From assembly GCA_017654855.1 (NCBI GenBank), contig CM030334.1, positions 2,976,001-3,040,000 of the forward strand: 64,000 nucleotides of DNA, given 5' to 3'. Each line of letters starts with the position of its first letter. Within the stretch, counting starts at the first letter, position 1. This DNA comes from Podospora anserina (lineage: Eukaryota). Of this stretch, positions 1,012 through 13,334 are shown piece after piece. The notes beneath the pieces were generated by a model that did no database searches, was not told the DNA's origin, and was given only the letters and a program-made list of their open reading frames with translations. The translations under genes and the position numbers were made by a program.

Positions 1012-3473
1012 ATGGAGGGAGGATTTTTAGATGGACAGCTTTATCCCATGGGGCCTAGGGTCCCGGGACTGGAGAAGCGCGGCCTCGCCGTGGAGATGCC
1101 GACGCCAATTTCTGGAATCAAGTTCCCTCGCGCCGTTTTGGCTGCGAGAGCCGAGGAGACCGACTGCCCGGATCCGCGACTTTGCCAGAAGCCGGTTGGC
1201 TCGTCTTCCATGACCTTGCCAATTGTTCTTGGAGTATGGTAAGTAGGATGCTGGGTATGCGCGCTAGAGTGTTGTGCTAACACTCTCTAGCATTCCCTTG
1301 GTTGGAGCGATTGGTGTTTTGATTTACCTTCACCGGAGGACGGTCAAAAAGAACAGGGAGGAGGATATGCATGATCCCCACAAGTCCCTGGATTTTGGGT
1401 TGGGTGCCGATTTTGCGAAGAAGAACGGCGCCGGTGTGGCCAACAGTGCCGACCCGTCGCGCTTCAACCGTCAAAAGCGCCAGCAAATGTCAATGGACAT
1501 GAACCTTTCCAGCCCCTATCTTCTCCCGGATGTTGGCCAGTCTCGGGATTCCCTCAACTCTCTGGCCCGCACTCTCAAGGCAAACGATGACCCGTACAGC
1601 CGTAGCGATGCTGGTTCGATAAGATCGTTCGCGCACAAGAACGGAGACGCCGCCTCGGTGTACACTCGCGCTGCTAGTCGCTCTGCCAGTCGCCAGGATG
1701 GCCCGCTTTCCCCCCCTCAAACAAGGAGTCCTCCACGCCTCGGCAGCATGCCGCCCAACTCGCCCCTTTTCCCCCCATCGCCGAGCCATATGCGCCCACC
1801 ACAGTCACCCCTTCCTCAGCCACCCAACAAGCCGGCCAACTCGCAAGGGTGGGAAGAGCAAGACATTGGTGTTGCAACGGATGCGCCCATTCTTCAGCAA
1901 CCGCCCGCTGCCGCTCAAAGGGATGCTCGGAAATCTCCTCTCTCTCCTACTCTCAAGACCAGCGACTCTAGCCTTGATCTCGCTCCTCCAGTTAATCCCT
2001 TCGAGAAGCCCGAGGCTCAAGAAATTGACACTCCCACCGAGCCCACTCATGTTGGTCTGGGACTCATGCACGGCGAGCCCGCTCAGGCCTCAGTCAGGAC
2101 CTCCACTTCGACGGTCAACAGCGAACTCGAGAGCAAAGCGCAACGCGGGCAGCCCGCCCAAGCGCCTGCTGTGATCGAGCCTGAACGCGCCGAGTTCCAC
2201 GACTTCGACTTCACCGATATGCCCAGGATGCCCCGGTCACCCTCGCCCGAGGGCCGCAAGGAGAACCAACTTGATGCGGACGAGCCCAGAGGCCGTAATA
2301 TGCAGAGGACGTCACATCTGTATGACCAGCAGGAGGGGGCTGCGAATGGCTTGGGCGTCCCGATGGGCGACAACCGTCGTCTTTCTGTTGGTTTCCGTCC
2401 TCTGCCGCCAGACGAGATCACGGAATCCGAGGACCCAGAGTACAGAGCCAACCGCATCAGATCTTTCTACAAGGAGTACTTTGAGGATTCCGCTGCTGAC
2501 AGACCACCCATGCCACCCATGCCCCAGAACATCCCAGCCCAGCACCAGCAAAAGCGCCCTGGACCGCCCGGGCCACAGAACGGAGGGTACTACGATGACT
2601 ACGCCGCGGATGCTCCTTACTTTGATCCTGCCTCGAACTCTTTCATCATGCCGTATGCCCAGCCTGTTTCTCGCCGTGCCATGACACCGCCCCCATCCGG
2701 ACAGAGATTCCCCGGTCCCAGAGGTCCTGGTGGTCCAAGAGGTCCCGGTCCGAGAGGACCGCCCGGCCCGCCCGGCCTCCGCGGTCCTCCCAGACCTGGG
2801 TCTTCCGTTTCCAACCAGATCGGCGGTCCCTCCCGCCCGGGATCCAGCATGTCGAACGCCTACGGCCGTCCCCGCGCCGGTTCCACCATGTCCGGTGGCC
2901 GTTTCGGTGGTAACGGTGGCAACAGAACGCCCGTTCCTCCCCCGATGGATCTCACCACCCTCCCAACCCCCTCCATGATGAAGGACGACTCGTTTGCCAT
3001 CCTGAACGCGGCCGACTTCGCTCCTCCCGAGAACTTTGCCTCGCGTGCCCGTGGCAGATCCCAGAGCCCAGCTGGCGAACGCCGGCCGTATGAGAGGAAG
3101 GTCCCAGTGCACTCGCCCTTGGTGAACGCCTTTGATGAGCTCCCCGTTCTCCCCAGCCCGTAAGTTTGATGATCCCTACTTGCATTTTCCCCCGAAAACA
3201 ATCACTAACAGCTCATCCAGTCACACCCTCCGCAAATCCAGCACCTTTACCGGTCTCGACTTTGCGCCCCCCCGCAAGTTCGTCAACGACAACGACGCCC
3301 GCAGCGACGCCGGCTCCATCCGCAGCAACCGCAGCGGCTTGTCGAATGTGCATGCCCAAGCCATCAAGAACGGCGCGGGCCGCATCAGCAAGCTGCCCGG
3401 CGACCAGATCTTCACCCCAGACGCCCTAGCTCAGACCTTGAAGCCATCGTGGGGTCTGCGTGACAAGGTGTAA
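1012..3473 (+). CDS. Single-pass membrane protein with Pro-rich cytosolic tail, Skg6/Tos2-like (~782 aa)
   Basis: Exons 1012-1238, 1291-3159, 3221-3473 (GTAAGT donors, CTAAC branch points). Splicing rebuilds a TM helix LPIVLGVCIPLVGAIGVLIYLHRR. The RANRIRSFYKEYF and LPTPS motifs resemble yeast Skg6/Tos2, from memory only. Confidence 0.75.
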
Positions 3474-5171: not shown

Positions 5172-6045
5172 GTTTCTCTCTCTCTTTTGTTGTTGTGAAA
5201 TGAATAATGACTGGTGGTGGGTAGTAAATGAGGAAGAACAAACCGTTGCGCCTGGAAAGCTCAGAGAAAATTGATGTGACGTCGCCCGGTGTGCAAGCAA
5301 GACGTGGCGCGGTGGAGGTTTGGTTGGTTGGTGGGTTGGTCGTCATTGTGCTGAGCTGTTCGCTTTCAGCCTTGTGGTGCATGCACAGTGGCAGCTGGGA
5401 AATCCTTATCTTATCAGAAGTTGAGTTGCCTGCCGGAGGGAAGGGTTGCCCCTTTTTGGCTTTGAGCTTCAACGTTTCAACATTGTACTTTCAGTTTCCA
5501 GTTCCCAATCGTAGTCCTCGTTTCCAAGTATGATACTGTAATCATGGTCTAGTATTAATCAAAACTACTATCAAGGACACAATCCCATCAACTTCCCAAC
5601 ATGCTCCTGTATAAACAAAACTAACACCTACTCAATGCCGATGCAATCGTATATCATACAGCACACCAAACAAAAAAACAACCCAAACTCCACGCTATGT
5701 GCAGCCAACCTATACGTTTGTGCCCCAAAGCCATGCCATGCGTGAAACCGAGCAGAAGGAAAGTAAAAGAAACCCATCATCCACCTTTTAGTGTCTTCCT
5801 TGGTTATATCAACCCTTCATCCCTTGATAAACCCTCCCCATCCTTCCCTCCCTCTCCACCCTCTGCTCCCTCGCCCATCTAATCCCCCTAACACTCCCCC
5901 TCTCCGACCCAACCGACAGAACCGACCCATTACTCCATCCCCTCTCCCTTCCATTTGACCCGACCGAGAAGATCGAACTCACACTCCCAACCCTCTCCCT
6001 CCCCATCCCCCCAGAACCGCCAGAAACATTAAGCAAACGGCCTCT

Positions 6046-7949
6046 CTAATCCGTCTCCTGACCCTGTTCCTGCCGGTTCCTCCTCCCCTCCCCCTCCTTG
6101 GGCCAAAGCAACTCCCGCTTCCACAAACAGTCCACCATCCTCCCCACCACCAAGCACCAAACAATTACAATCCCCGCTGCCAGCACACACCCAAAGACCT
6201 TCAACCCTTCAGCCCCCAGCTGTATCCCAATCGCCTCCGTCGCCGTGACCAGCGCAGTGTTAGGAAATACAAAACTGAACCACGTCATCTGGAACTTGAA
6301 GTTCTCCTTCTTCTCCGGACGGAGATACTTCCAAAGGGAACCCACAGACACCAAGAAGAACCAGATGCTCAACCCCCAGAGCCAAAGGCCAGTCATGTAT
6401 GCCATGACTTTGAGTATGTCCGCTGAGAGGGTGTGGTCGGAGGGGAAAATATCGGATGCTAGGCCACCGAGGGAGACAAGACCTGCCGCGGTGAAACCTG
6501 ACGGACCGATACTGATGAAAACACCGGGACGTTGATGGTCGCGGGGAAGTTTTTGAGTCATGAGGCGGTAGAGGAAGGAGGCCGAGATCATAAAGGCGAT
6601 TAGGAAGCCGGTGCCCTGAGTTGTCAAGCTGGCTAAGGAGATAGCAATAGGGTTTAACAGGTCAATGCGGCCGGATTGGGCGGCGGCAGAGATGAGGTTC
6701 GCGGCCATAGGGGCGGTCAGCAAGAGAGGGTAGGCGGGGAAGACCCAGACCGGAGTCATGGTGTGGATTGGAAAGACTCTGATACCAAAGTTAGTATGAA
6801 GCCAACAGAGGTTGACAAGGTGACACATACTGAGTCGACCAAAGAGTGAGATAAAGGCCCGCAGAAGATAGCGTGCTTAACCCCACGTAAACCCAAAACA
6901 GCGCCTCCAACAAAGAGAGAAGCCAGTCACCAACGTGAGGAATACCATACTGGGCCGTGGTGATGAGAATCGTCGCTAGTGATACAATCTACTCCATATT
7001 AGCCTTCAGATCCAGTCCATGGAGGGTATGTTCCACGACTTATTCAGGAGTGAGAAAGAAATGGTGTGTTACACAGCCACTCAGGGGCCGGCTCGCAATA
7101 GAAAATTATGCTACTTACAAGGGAAGAAATAAACAACGACTCCATCTGGTCCGTGAACGACTCGACAAAGCTTCCCGGCCGCCAATGAAACCGCAACGAG
7201 ATTAATACACAGTTCATTATGAACAAACAAATGTTGAGAAAGTAAAAAGCAAGCCCGATGCCGGTCAGCCAGCGCGATTCGTAGGGTATCGAGTGAAGAA
7301 CATTGGCTACTCCGCCTGTCGCCTATAACATTATCAGCTTCACCTACATCGAACTGTTGATCAAGAAAAGGCGACCTACCATGGTCATGGTAAACCAGTT
7401 CCACTGCACACAGCAAATCCGGTCTTTGATGCTCACTTTCCCATTCCCATACTTGGCATTATTTCCTGCCCGGTTCATCATCCCCTCCAGGGAGTCCGGC
7501 GTCGAAAACTCCAAGTACGGTGCATGGGTATGTATGGTGGCCGGTGTGGACGTACCACTCCTCCCGGGCTGGCGATTCCGATAATATGATGAAAACCCCC
7601 CTTGACCCGGAGCAGGGTTGTAATTCGGAGGCTCAAACTCGTCTGGTGATTCATACCCTATGCTCCCCATGCGCGGGAGCGGTGGCCGTTGCTGTAGCTG
7701 ATGAGGAGATCGCGGGGAGGTGGTGTTGACGTTAACATTTTGGGTATGAACAGACAAATGACTGATATTTTGTTGTGGTAGTTGTATGTGTTGTGGTTGT
7801 GAAGCTGGTGGTGGTGAAGCTAGTGGTGGTGGTGGTGGTGGTGGTTGTGTAGGTTGTGTAGGCTGTGGCCATGACGACGGTGAGCTGCTGCTGTTGCTCA
7901 TGAACCCTGCAGGGCCGGGGGAACCACCGGCCACTCTTGGGACGGCCAT
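6046..7949 (-). CDS. mae1: Malic acid/C4-dicarboxylate transporter, SLAC1/TDT family, Mae1-like (~554 aa; alternative start 7901)
   Basis: Exons 7949-7380, 7322-7119, 6988-6831, 6778-6046. Motifs WNWFTMTMATGGVA, MTPVWVFPAYP, RPGVFISIGPSGFT and WFSFVFPN; about 10 TM segments. Confidence 0.9.
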
Positions 7950-8148
7950 GCTAAGAACACTCGTTCGAGTACCAATCCGACTGCCAAAATGCCTTGGCCT
8001 CCGACCATAGCAATCAGCTGGTCGCACGCGTCCGAGATGTTGACGAGAGCCGTGAGAAACAAGACAGTCTCGAAGAGGTTCCCTATCATTAGGGTGATGG
8101 GCATCATGGTGGGGTGTGTAAGTGGTGGTTGGGTGGGTGGCCGGGGTC

Positions 8149-8155
8149 TTATATA
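8149..8155 (-). promoter_or_regulatory. TATA box upstream of the Mae1-like transporter
   Basis: TATATAA on the minus strand, followed by a C/A-rich stretch, about 200 nt upstream of ATG 7949. Confidence 0.5.
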
Positions 8156-10299
8156 AATTGACAGGGTAGTGAAAAACTAGAAGAAAAAAAGGCTCCTAAG
8201 GTAATAGTGTAAAGGAAGGACCGTTAATGCTTGGTTGCTCCTAGGCCCCCGTCACTTCCCGGAAAGCGGCAAACGGAGATGGCCCTATTGAGAGGGTCGT
8301 GTGTGTGTGCTGTGTGTGTGTGGGTGCTGTGTGTGTGAGTGTAGTATCTCTCGAGTGCGGATCCTGCGATCTCGATTTCACCACCTTTTGCGGATGACAC
8401 TAGCGGAGGTTTTCTCTGCAGAAAGATGGATGGAAAATCCTGGCTTGCCGCGGCCTTGGTCCGACTCCTATGGCTGGCAATTGGCGGCTTTCCTTTTGGA
8501 TGAGAAGACCGAACTCGTGCGAAGCTCGGCGGTTACGTAGTGGCAGGTTTTTAGGGGCAGTGGTGTGCAGTAAGCAGGGTCCTTGTCAAGTTTGGATGGT
8601 ATGCCTTTAGGGTCTGACCAGAAATTGCATGTGAGGGTAGGTGTGGGCTGCTAGGGAGAATATTCGAGAGAAGCGCAAGGTGATGCTCGAGGGTTGGGTT
8701 AAAAAAATGTGTGACTCTGATCAGCAAGGCATGGAAAGTCGTGTGCAGTTGACAGACGGGAAGTCCAGTTTCGGACAGGCATTAAAATCCCCGGACATCG
8801 CCTACGTTAGTGAGGATCAAAGAAAGTTTAATTCTCCTAATAGCACAACGCATGATTTGTGCCCGCTGAGTTACCAAACCCCGTGGTGTCTTTTCCATGG
8901 GAAGCAATTCTAATCTCCCTTCCTCATCCCTCTGACCGAATTTCCCATCACGATGCAAGAAAAACTCTGAGCGAATGCAGAGGGGCAGCTTTCGTCATTC
9001 CAAGACATGTCGTTCGCCCGCCAAGCCGGCCGGCACGGTCCAGCTGACCCCCCAATGATCGGCTCCGACATCTGATGTGCCCCGGATAACGATGCCGAGA
9101 TACCCACCAAGCCTCTTCGAAACACTAATGAGAAAACTTCCGTTTCCCTTCACCATCCCGGATTTCCCCATCTTCACACGTCATGCAAATGCGGTAATTC
9201 CTCCATGTTACAAAATGGGCTGTGTTTTCGACCTCGTCCTCGCATTCGCCCTCGCCCTGTGTTTGTGTTTCTCGTCCAATCTTCCACCACCAAACACACG
9301 ATATATGCTCCCCTTCCCATCTGACATGCCGGCACTAAGCTTGTGCACCACCATCTTTCAGGTGCCTTGCATCGTGTTACGGTGAGCGCGAGTAGGCGGT
9401 GTCCGAGGACCGGCGCTATCGTGCCAGCACAGAGAAACAGGTCTTGATGCTCTTGGTGGTGCGTAGTAGCAGCGCTGGGTGCATGGCCTCGTTGTCCAAT
9501 GTAAGACGAGGACGCTTGCTCGCTGCAGCAGTAGGACCTGTCAAAAAGTCTGGATTCTGTGACCCGAGTACGGAGGAATCTCTCCAGGTCTACTTCGAGT
9601 CACCATCTCACCAAAAGGCCTGTATAAAAGCTCACCGCATCCTACTTTCACGGTCAAGAGGGCCAGCAAGCAAGTGGCAACGCCAACACTAATTTGAGTT
9701 ACATCAGGTAATATATCAATTCTCATTTATAAACTGCCTGTGATTGTTACGTATAGATGGAACAAACCTCACCGTATTTTTACTTGGCTTTGTCCCATGA
9801 CGGGACGACGAGCTTGAATTGCTGGTTACCCATAGCGGCAATCAGGGATCACCCAACTGACAATCCAATCCACTCGTTTTTGTTGTTTATTGCAATATCA
9901 GCAAAACCGACCTTTGTCGTTACGATCACGACCCCCCTAAACCTGCCCTTTTCTTCAGGACCTCTAATCAGAAAAACACACGCAACCGCCCTATGTTTTC
10001 AGGTCTTGCAAGGAGAGTGCCAGTTTCTACCCCGGAATCCCCGGATCAACCACCTCCACCCAAACGCCAGGTATTACCGCCCCGTGGACACGGCAGAGAG
10101 GGTCGCTTTGCGCGCATGTACGGATGGTCTCGATGGACACATCCTACAGAGAGCCGCCAATGCAAATAGTCTTTTTGGTGTATACTGTCCAGGGAATAAA
10201 GAGAAGGAAAAGAAGGGAAAAAAATATGGACAGATAGAGAAAACGCCAGTCCCATGATGTAATATGATGCTTTTTGGTTACCCCCCAATTGTTATGCAT

Positions 10300-11945
10300 T
10301 TAGTCGTGATTAAACAGGACGCTGATGGATTCACCATGGTGGACGCGCCGGATCGCCTCGGCAAAGATGGGCGAGATATCCAGAACATCCAGCTTGGGTC
10401 CAAGAAGCGCCTTGTGCTTGTCCTGAGGCACCGAGTTGGTCACAACCACCTTGTCGATGGCCGATGCCTGTACGCGGTTGATAGCGTCACCGCTGAAGAC
10501 GCCGTGGGTCAGAAGGGCGTAGATCTTGGTCGCACCCTCCTTTTTGCAGAGCTTGGCAGCGCGTGTAATGGTGTTGCCCGTATCGAGAAGGTCGTCGACG
10601 AGAATGCAGATGCGGTCCCGCACATCACCCACCAACATCATGCTTGCGTTTTGCCGGTCCGTGATCTTAGTAGGGCGGCGTTCCTGTTTTGAATCGTTAA
10701 GGACGGAGCGCTCCTGGCAGCAGCAAGAGGATAATACCTTGTGGATGAGGGCGAAATCAACGCCCATGCTGTCAGCAATCGCTGTTGCGCGCTTCGCGCC
10801 GCCTGCGTCGGGGGAAATGATCACGGCATCCTTGTAGTTGGGGATGTGCTGCTGGATGTACCGCTTGAGGAGAGGCCTTCCGTACAAGTTGTCGACAGGC
10901 ACGTCAAAGAATCCCTGCACTGTTTCAAAAAGTCAATACCCTCCCCTACGTAACACGGCTGGATGGAGGAGAAAAACGTGGCCCAGAACTCCGGGCCTTC
11001 ACACAGAGTCGCAGTTCTTGGCATGCAACCGACGAAAAGGGGTAAACCTCCAAGTTACACGTACCTTGAGGGTCGTGCAAATCCATGGTGATGACTGTGG
11101 GCAGACAGGTTAGCTTGTTATCCACAATCGCAACAAGTAAACCGATCAAGTCGATTCAGCAACCAGGCCATTGGGCTGGTTGTCGAGTAGCAAGACTGGA
11201 CGCAAACATCAAAGATATGCGTACCATGATCAGCACCAGCACAGTTCAAGAGGTTCGCGACCAACGTGCCAGCCTGCGCAACCCACTGCTTATAGCCAGG
11301 CTTCGCTTGGAATGCGCCGATGTGCGAGAGGTTCTCATAATCGTGCGTCGTGTAGGCCCCAGTCCGTGTGACGGGGCTTGGGGTGGTGGTGCCGTTGACT
11401 CCATTCGCAGGGAAATAGCCATCGCCGTTTTGTTTGATGGGGGACTGGACACCGTTCCCGTTGGTCAAGGAGGTCTTGAGCAGTTTGCTCGTGATATCAG
11501 TGCCATTGGTGAGACCGGCAGTCTTTGGAATACCGGGGGCTGGCGTAGCGGGGACACTGTCGAAGGTATAGTCCTTCTTTCCGCTCTCCGACCCAGCCTT
11601 GAACAGAGGCGCACCGGCCTTGTTGTATGGGAGATCTGGCTGTCTCGAGTAGGGAAACAAGGGCAGGACAGCCGTGACCCTACGCGCCGAACCTGTCTTG
11701 CAGGCAGAGATCATGATGCACAGATCCATGAAATGATCATTGAGCCTGCTGCCGTTGCCCCCGAAGCCCGTCTGAATGATGTACACATCCTTGCCTCGAA
11801 CCGAGTCCTGGATCTCGCAGCGGCTTTCTCCCGAAGAGAACTTGGTCAGGATGCGGTTGCATGGTGGCAAGCTGAGCGCATTACAGACGCTGTCGACCAG
11901 GGCCGGGTGCGAGTTTCCGCCGAGAACCACGATGTTGCGGACCAT
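10300..11945 (-). CDS. PRS5: Ribose-phosphate pyrophosphokinase, Prs5-type with a long non-homologous insertion (~438 aa)
   Basis: Exons 11945-11225, 11094-11065 (30 nt), 10919-10738, 10683-10300. Motifs KFSSGES, LPLFPYSRQ, ITMDLHDPQ, ISPDAGGAKRA, ILVDDLLDTGNT and THGVFSG. Confidence 0.93.
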
Positions 11946-13334
11946 GATGACGGCTCAATTGGCTTGTATAAGGGGAGCGGCGTGATCCGACGAAATCGCC
12001 GACGAGTGACCGGTGTCGGGAGACGGCCGACAACGAAAAGTTGGGAGTTGGCGAGATGTGGGAGGGGCCAAGAAAGCGGTTTAGCGGCGGGAGGTACAAG
12101 ACCAAAAGCTCGACAACCGAACGGATCCGATGACCGGCAGGGAAGCGAAGTTTTTCGGCAGCTGCAGGTGCAAGTCGATGATGACGACTGATCGCTGCCG
12201 GAGAGAAGCAGAAGACAATGGGCGGTGTAAAAGTCTTTTGCAGATGTGGTTATGCTGGCAGAGGACCGGCAAATGATAAGCTTCTGAAGGGTCAAACTCT
12301 CCAAAGCCTTCAAGGGTCCTCGTGTTGCCCGAAGAAGTTTTGATGCCAGGATCTGGGGGCTTGTTCAACAAAGAATGCCGAGGGTAGGCGGGTTAGGCTC
12401 GCTGAAAGGAAGCCTACAGTGAATAGAGTGCCACCAAGAGCGGAGAGAGTCTACTGCAGACAGGAAGAGGTGACAGAAAAGAAGAAGAGAAGAGAGGAAG
12501 ACGGGAGGTCATCACAGGGGAGTCATGGCGAGGCGTGTAAATGGGGGGCCAGATGGATGGATGCAGGTGAGAATTGTCGTTGGAAGAGAAACAGTAGCAG
12601 CAGGGTGGGCTTTGAGTGGGACCTGGAACTGGCTTTCACCGCGGGGCAGGCAGGCTAGAGGCTAGGAAATCAAACACTGAAAAGTTTTTGCGGCTTCGCG
12701 GCTGTGTGAGTGATTCAAGGTTCTCGCCTCATCCATTGACGTCGCCTTCGGTCGGATGAGGTACCAGGTACCTGCCCGCCGGCCCTGCTGGGGTCGTGCC
12801 GGTCAGGAATGATGCGATATTTTTTTTCCTCTTCAAAAAGCTGCAGGTTTAGCCGTACGCTGATTGGACAGAAGCCTTCAATGGGGACGTGCACTGCAGC
12901 ACTGGCTTGCATGGAGGGGCAAGTTCTCACACTGTGGCAGAAACATGTGCTGCTTGGGTGAGAGCCTTCTCATGGCAGCCTCACCATTTCAAACTTTTTT
13001 TCTGTGAGATTCTGATACCTCTATGCAGCGGTCGTCACCGGCCAGACTGTTTTCTGCATCAATGCTCTTGCGGGGTAGAAAGTGAATGAGACTTTGATAG
13101 ACAGCTGCTCCTGTCGGTCGTAACCAACCTTGATCATAATTTGCTTGTCCTTGCTTGGTTGACTTGACAGCCTCGACTTCATCCGGGTAGTGTGCTTCAA
13201 GATCCCTGCATCGGTACCGTGAACACCGGAGCTAGGAATATCGTCCACCGCAACATCTATCCGATTGCAACATCCATCTCCTTGTCGTCGGCTTCCTTTC
13301 ATTCAAGCCATCGCAAGCTCAACAGAAAGCCGCC

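Follow-up and report, generated by a model that had tools for sequence, protein, structure and literature searches.

The window, a stretch of 64,000 nucleotides of Podospora anserina DNA, contains on its minus strand a Mae1/SLAC1-family channel gene whose TAG stop is followed by 78 open codons, the last nine of which encode a motif that recurs at the same place in related genera. This extension is very likely translated at times. The best explanation of the locus as a whole, considered fairly probable, is that the stop codon is edited in perithecia, giving rise to a tail with a terminal signal. The features are collected in Table 1.

Table 1. Features of the Mae1 locus, in window coordinates.
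Feature	Position	Strand	Basis or remark
Mae1/SLAC1-family channel gene	6046..7949	minus	PF03595, contig-supported joints, spliced length, orthologue cluster
Exons (4)	7949 or 7901 to 7380; 7322-7119; 6988-6831; 6778-6046	minus
Canonical TAG stop, candidate edited A at 6047	6046..6048	minus	Homologue ends; TAG in 8/10 clade lineages
Predicted RNA hairpin	6017..6076	minus	Inner stem 6056-6051 with 6040-6035; 10-nt loop 6050-6041 holding UAG
Ser/Gly/Arg-rich linker, 69 codons, predicted largely disordered	5839..6045	minus	15-69 codons in relatives
In-frame tandem duplication inside linker	5906..6003	minus	2 x 47 nt, 70% alike, 51 nt apart
Conserved terminal motif and second stop, GRVYQGMKG-TGA	5809..5838	minus	Consensus E-x-x-F-x-x-M-K-x-stop; predicted helix
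3' untranslated stretch	5546..5808	minus	Spliced contig, run X2, record 13

The last exon carries a match to the SLAC1 domain (E 5e-54), in frame upstream of the TAG. The three introns (7379-7323, 7118-6989 and 6830-6779) are joined in the contigs of all four transcript runs. The product is 538 residues long from the ATG at 7901, and use of the ATG at 7949 adds 16 more. The closest protein match, 100% identical, comes from the Podospora anserina complex, and its cluster includes PODANS_3_8350. The protein contains the pore-phenylalanine motif WFSFVFP; this motif and PF03595 are shared by the Mae1/Dct channels, the fungal members of the SLAC1 family (PMC6765260, accessible part). A model of half of the domain gave weak matches to SLAC1 and TehA among known folds (best E 0.04), and a sequence search of the PDB returned no matches. 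On sequence grounds the product is most likely a normal Mae1/SLAC1-type anion (malate) channel ending at the TAG, malate transport being taken from annotation only. The two Mae1 paralogues of the same genome both end with TGA and have 8 and 11 open codons behind it. In the leader of the gene there is an upstream ORF of 69 codons (8107-7898, minus strand), the TGA of which overlaps the ATG at 7901 as ATGA; the leader is covered by contigs at 7857-8440 and beyond, and the upstream ORF could steer the choice of start codon. The neighbouring genes are GET2 (PF08690; 5171-4080, minus strand) downstream and a ribose-phosphate pyrophosphokinase (10932-10300, minus strand) upstream. One X2 contig, 7857-12500, covers both the pyrophosphokinase and the Mae1 leader, which does not by itself show a single transcript.

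The minus strand reads GAG ACG GAT TAG AGA GGC, with GAT TAG AGA at 6051-6043, and remains open until the TGA at 5811-5809; the 78 codons and the extension peptide are as the preliminary description had given them. The TAG is a normal and not a premature stop, because the homologues end at or before its matching point: none of the best 120 of 921 matches more than 75% of the read-through query, and where the residues LWP could be located they end 3 to 18 residues past them. Several database proteins terminate at 'REL', apparently through a missed last exon. An intron lies just before LWP in many relatives (L005, L006, L007, L020, L080, L016 and L018), and the window is without it (about 6110). 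The locus was also considered as a pseudogene of the premature stop correction (PSC) type. Such genes are alike in keeping conserved coding information behind a TAG (PMC10776026, accessible part), but in Mae1 the TAG comes after an entire channel domain, and the tail was encoded by none of the outgroup proteins fetched. This candidate was rejected on the coverage of those 120 homologues and since no protein in the searches made matches the tail.

Transcript evidence consisted of the contigs of four runs (X1, X2, X3 and X10), for which the stage is unrecorded and in which rare variants are dropped. A spliced X2 contig spans 5546-6778, so the tail lies in the transcript; the preliminary description had placed the end of a tail-bearing transcript beyond 5809, and this contig extends to 5546. 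The A at 6047 is unchanged in the X1 and X2 contigs that cross it, as contigs of unrecorded stage from which rare variants are dropped, and A is the majority base in X2. The listed pieces of X3 and X10 show no cover of 6047. Across 11.5 kb the contigs of the four runs, stage unrecorded, contain no editing-like changes. At position 3079 an A>G difference is present at 100% in all four runs outside a UA context, and is probably a difference of strain or assembly.

The contigs also bear on whether alternative splicing, with the TAG either used as a splice site or skipped, could give access to the tail. A TAG followed by a purine resembles a 3' splice site, and the intron before LWP in several relatives would suit such an arrangement. 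That intron, however, is of phase 2, so that a TAG acceptor would give a frame other than that of the motif, and the window itself lacks both the intron and a branch-site-like word before the TAG. No splice joint lies between 5546 and 6778 in the four runs, and splicing is regarded as extremely improbable.

The length of the open frame is of limited use as evidence. The preliminary description had cautioned that G-rich sequence is naturally poor in stop codons. This does not explain the case: when the bases of the 234 nt were shuffled 20,000 times, only 1.3% of the shuffles remained open, and G-richness is therefore not the sole cause. Extensions of at least 78 codons follow 2 of 79 terminal-looking ORFs of the same genome (4 of 84 before a branch-point filter), an ab initio and imperfect set drawn from 864 kb, and for this reason finding one such extension in 64 kb is not remarkable where length is the sole criterion. 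One member of that set, at about 34350-33450 of the window (minus strand), has a TAG followed by 96 open codons and may be an intron artefact. Under a coding model, 4.8% of 84 UTRs score as high as the tail, which stands barely above 3' UTRs, and the last 39 nt score negative. Length and editing context alone would not carry the claim of a translated tail.

The claim is carried by the comparison with relatives. A scan of metagenomes yielded 80 loci, 22 of which were placed in a tree with 52 named proteins. The other 58 comprised near-duplicates (L008, L009, L014 and L019), loci cut before the C-terminus (L023, L056, L059, L075 and L083) and more distant homologues of 37-46% identity. Nine loci and the window form one clade with support of 0.97, giving ten lineages of Sordariales together with Coniochaeta, Phialemonium and Thozetella. 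L004 is placed near Cladorrhinum; L005, L006, L007 and L020 near Cercophora and Schizothecium; L080 near Collariella; L016 and L018 near Staphylotrichum; and L013 near Coniochaeta. The preliminary description looked to orthologues for TGG at the stop or a conserved extension, and to sister species for a frameshift. In eight of the ten lineages, the window included, the TAG is followed by a tail in frame 0 with the motif; core identities are 64-85%, the relatives belong to other genera rather than the P. anserina species complex, and the lineages are related, so that counts are not independent. The exceptions, L016 and L018, have a TAA stop and no motif. The frame thus runs on past the TAG in the eight for 24 to 78 codons and is closed by TGA in six, TAG in one and TAA in one. 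Their tails end in VYQGMKG, VFEGMKG, LFALMKS, SFREMKC, TFLEMKE, VFQQLKL, LFLEMKA and LMMYMKY, and in six of the eight a Glu stands nine residues before the end. This conserved part, the last nine residues, did not figure in the preliminary description.

Since the motif was derived from the same eight sequences, a blind test of end similarity was added. In all ten lineages, with nothing selected by hand, the frame was followed to its first stop, whichever codon that was, and the nine residues preceding it were compared by BLOSUM score. The mean score was -1.0, against a null of -9.3 +/- 1.2 in which none of 5000 sets exceeded -3.3. Scores in the two remaining frames were -9.4 and -11.4, and six loci from outside the clade scored -9.3. 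The motif precedes 10 of 27,815 non-coding stops. It was absent from 16 other loci, including some short ones, when as much as 600 nt of each was searched in three frames. Outside the clade, a TAG is found at 2 of 10 orthologue loci and the motif at none; in one of these, L015, the sequence ends after 52 open codons, with the end of the tail beyond reach. A Colletotrichum-like orthologue (L010:1049-1054) has a tandem TAA TAG followed by TGG, and its contig stops 49 nt past the first stop. Within the clade, ELVFAHGLE in L016 may be a relic of the motif, the resemblance being weak. A tie between the TAA stop without motif in the Staphylotrichum-like L016 and L018/L019 and a loss of sexual reproduction is a guess. 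In L005 and L014 a second in-frame TAG (L005:2390-2392) lies seven codons before the end, just ahead of the motif, where the surrounding bases suit editing poorly and a stem is predicted; the tail of these two would need two edits or else be decaying. A separate three-codon ORF (ATG AAG NNN stop) was tried as a source of the conservation and rejected, as L013 carries CTG and the conservation also takes in residues upstream of the Met.

The linker behaves differently from the end. Its length varies among lineages by whole codons (15-69), and its DNA alignment scores are low, at 10-16 for 27 of 28 pairs. Serine takes up 50 of 244 codons, against 19.5 +/- 4.0 in 3000 shuffles and 20 and 16 in the other frames, and hydrophobic codons number 57 against 80 expected; in control extensions serine accounts for 9%. 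The internal duplication that had been reported in the window is real (copies at 5906-5952 and 5957-6003), but it is lineage-specific and unseen in the other seven tails. The RxRxxS kinase-site-like motifs reported with it fared less well: three RxxS/T sites were seen against 3.0 expected, no enrichment, although serine itself is enriched. A phosphorylatable tail, as had been proposed, is accordingly the less likely reading. Judged from the sequences compared, a conserved end combined with a drifting linker is what selection acting on a translated product would leave.

The same comparison weighs on the view that the tail is untranslated, being either a conserved RNA element of the 3' UTR or a decaying relic with a frame open by luck. 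The codons of the motif are consistent with this, with TTT for all 6 Phe and AAG for all 8 Lys; at gene ends in this genome, however, TTT is used at 70% and AAG at 83% anyway. Loss of the motif in L016 and L018 and its interruption in L005 would also fit, as would the two of 79 genes with extensions as long and the fact that none of 201 fetched proteins ends with the motif, the read-through query aside. Against it, the motif is in frame in 7 of 7 other lineages, which by chance has a probability of (1/3)^7 = 5e-4; it is closed by three different stop codons, and the serine enrichment before it is specific to the frame. An untranslated tail is therefore given a low probability. In searches for the tail in longer proteins, the extension alone found none of 306 candidates at E <= 10. 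A profile of core plus tail gave 16 matches when 7999 candidates were scored and 33 in a set of 1.84 billion representatives, every one of them owed to the core, and a search of the ESM Atlas gave no usable match.

A tail translated behind a TAG could be made through editing of the mRNA or through readthrough by the ribosome. The tail is probably made by sexual-stage editing of UAG to UGG, the edited base itself being unseen in the contigs. Around A6047 there is U at -2 and -1, G at +1, A at +2, G at +3 and A at +4. The preliminary description had judged UUAGAG to suit the editing preference, and this was borne out: the preferred base is present at -2, -1, +1, +3 and +4, with the A at +2 listed as depleted. 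In Fusarium graminearum the preference is for C/U at -2, U at -1, purines at +1, +3 and +4, and a hairpin loop (PMC9600606, accessible part), and published fungal editing preferences match the window context (PMC11156358, accessible part). Preferred bases at -2, +3 and +4 occur together in 6 of 8 motif lineages versus 3 of 28 control TAG stops, the pyrimidine at -2 being mostly dictated by the Asp codon. The predicted hairpin has a free energy of -24.9 kcal/mol (z -4.16), keeps its loop unchanged at each of 7 flank sizes and exceeds in stability all 28 control TAG stops. With flanks of 30 nt the A is in a predicted loop in 6 of 8 motif lineages versus 12 of 28 controls, and for this reason only the hairpin of the window is exceptional.

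Ribosomal readthrough of the UAG by a near-cognate tRNA, possibly helped by the hairpin and without sexual-stage specificity, would account for all of the protein-level conservation and for the unedited contigs, and it could pass the second TAG of L005. Leaky stops are usually followed by C. In 8 of 8 motif lineages, however, the TAG is followed by a purine, the motif-bearing lineages never have TGA as first stop, and the predicted structure encloses the stop in its loop rather than following it. Readthrough is thus improbable.

With regard to the editing machinery, the genome contains three genes of the DUF726 (Ame1) family and several matches to the deaminase family PF00383, assigned at family level only; Ame1 is a DUF726 protein (PMC11087585, accessible part). 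In Neurospora crassa the orthologue NCU01788 is edited at four coding sites in perithecia (PMC13431901, accessible part); the accessible list of that study carries no entry labelled stop, and the missing stop entry for this gene is uninformative because the analysis excludes stop codons. A 'malic acid transport protein' of F. graminearum, matched by annotation, is stop-loss edited at 6% of 133 reads, in a species with called stop-loss edits in only 403 of 4,292 TAG-ending genes. SMAC_02470 is not among the entries listed in the accessible parts of two Sordaria macrospora editing supplements. The accessible text of a preprint (bioRxiv 10.1101/2024.12.09.627484) names ADAT genes, and Podospora editing sites were not found in it.

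Comparable systems are known. Stop-loss A-to-I editing of DBF2 has been reported in F. graminearum and other Sordariomycetes, where both editing and destabilisation were measured (PMC13123824, accessible part). The Mae1 locus resembles DBF2 in its clade-wide canonical TAG, an A in a predicted hairpin loop and a disordered extension; it differs in that DBF2 tails are poorly conserved, while the Mae1 tail has a conserved end motif, belongs to a membrane channel and has its editing unseen (same source). Stop-loss extensions with peptide evidence in S. macrospora, a member of the same order, likewise arise by UAG-to-UGG conversion beyond a canonical C-terminus, but white collar 1 gains 131 residues and a predicted domain, whereas Mae1 would gain a short motif on a variable linker (PMC6794485, accessible part). 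No paper on the Mae1 tail itself was found in a literature search. In fungi, cryptic C-terminal PTS1 signals arise by readthrough. Here too a terminal signal would be hidden behind a stop, but the motif is not PTS1-like in 7 of 8 lineages.

From the stop context, the predicted hairpin and the conserved end we infer the following route. A Tad2-Tad3-Ame1 deaminase would edit the loop-exposed A6047 in part of the perithecial mRNA, and the edited UAG would be read as UGG, adding a 79-residue cytosolic tail. The tail would consist of a Trp, a serine-rich flexible linker and the short terminal motif E-x-x-F/Y-x-x-M-K-x. This motif would most likely be read by a trafficking or turnover factor, with the result that the channel is removed or re-routed in ascus and spore development. 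The C-terminal side of SLAC1 proteins is cytosolic, hence the tail would be cytosolic as well. It follows the last predicted membrane helix. In an AlphaFold2 model of the last exon and tail, the linker (residues 254-294) is of low confidence, with pLDDT under 50, and a terminal helix is predicted at 297-321. A complex prediction of the channel with the last 33 residues of the tail, run with alignments unused, scored 0.00 and gave no verdict.

Among possible functions, trafficking or turnover through the motif would take about half of the weight; docking of the tail on the channel, so as to gate it, at about a quarter, and phospho-regulation through the linker would follow. The fixed Lys and the constant spacing to the C-terminus suggest a factor that reads the free end. 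The aromatic-x-x-hydrophobic core of the tail is presumably similar to YxxPhi sorting signals and, taken together with the upstream Glu, to Atg8-binding motifs. Removal or re-routing in asci is the likeliest role because edited tails lower protein levels and the tail of Schizosaccharomyces pombe Mae1 affects its level. It has been reported that removal of the C-terminal peptide of S. pombe Mae1 reduces level and malate export by about 40% (PMC6765260, accessible part). That tail, however, is genomically encoded, whereas the tail in the window lies behind the TAG (same source).

Editing could also be real and the tail no more specific than a generic disordered degron or phospho-tail, as in Dbf2, with its exact end irrelevant. 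The serine-rich, hydrophobic-poor and low-confidence linker agrees with this, as do the F. graminearum tails, 6 of 6 of which lowered GFP. The last nine residues, however, are conserved and the linker is not, and RxxS/T sites are not enriched; a generic tail is considered unlikely. The more specific proposal is that editing switches on a sequence-specific signal, E-x-x-F-x-x-M-K-x-COOH, which may re-route or gate the channel in asci. This is put forward tentatively and at less than even confidence, and no known family for such a signal was found here.

It is disputed whether stop-loss editing in fungi serves adaptation or is for the most part error (PMC13684035, PMC13684032; PMC13123824, accessible part). 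The mechanism class is already known, with hundreds of cases per genome, and the surprise of a further case is limited. An end conserved residue by residue across families, behind a drifting linker, directly indicates that the read-through product is under selection. The locus suggests that a C-terminal signal has gone unrecognised and that an organic-acid channel may be controlled in a stage-specific way. If the proposed reading is true, the tail would be a stop-loss extension selected for its exact residues across Sordariales and Coniochaetales, unlike generic disordered degrons, and it might link the flux of malate or anions with turgor in the ascus or with maturation of the spores.
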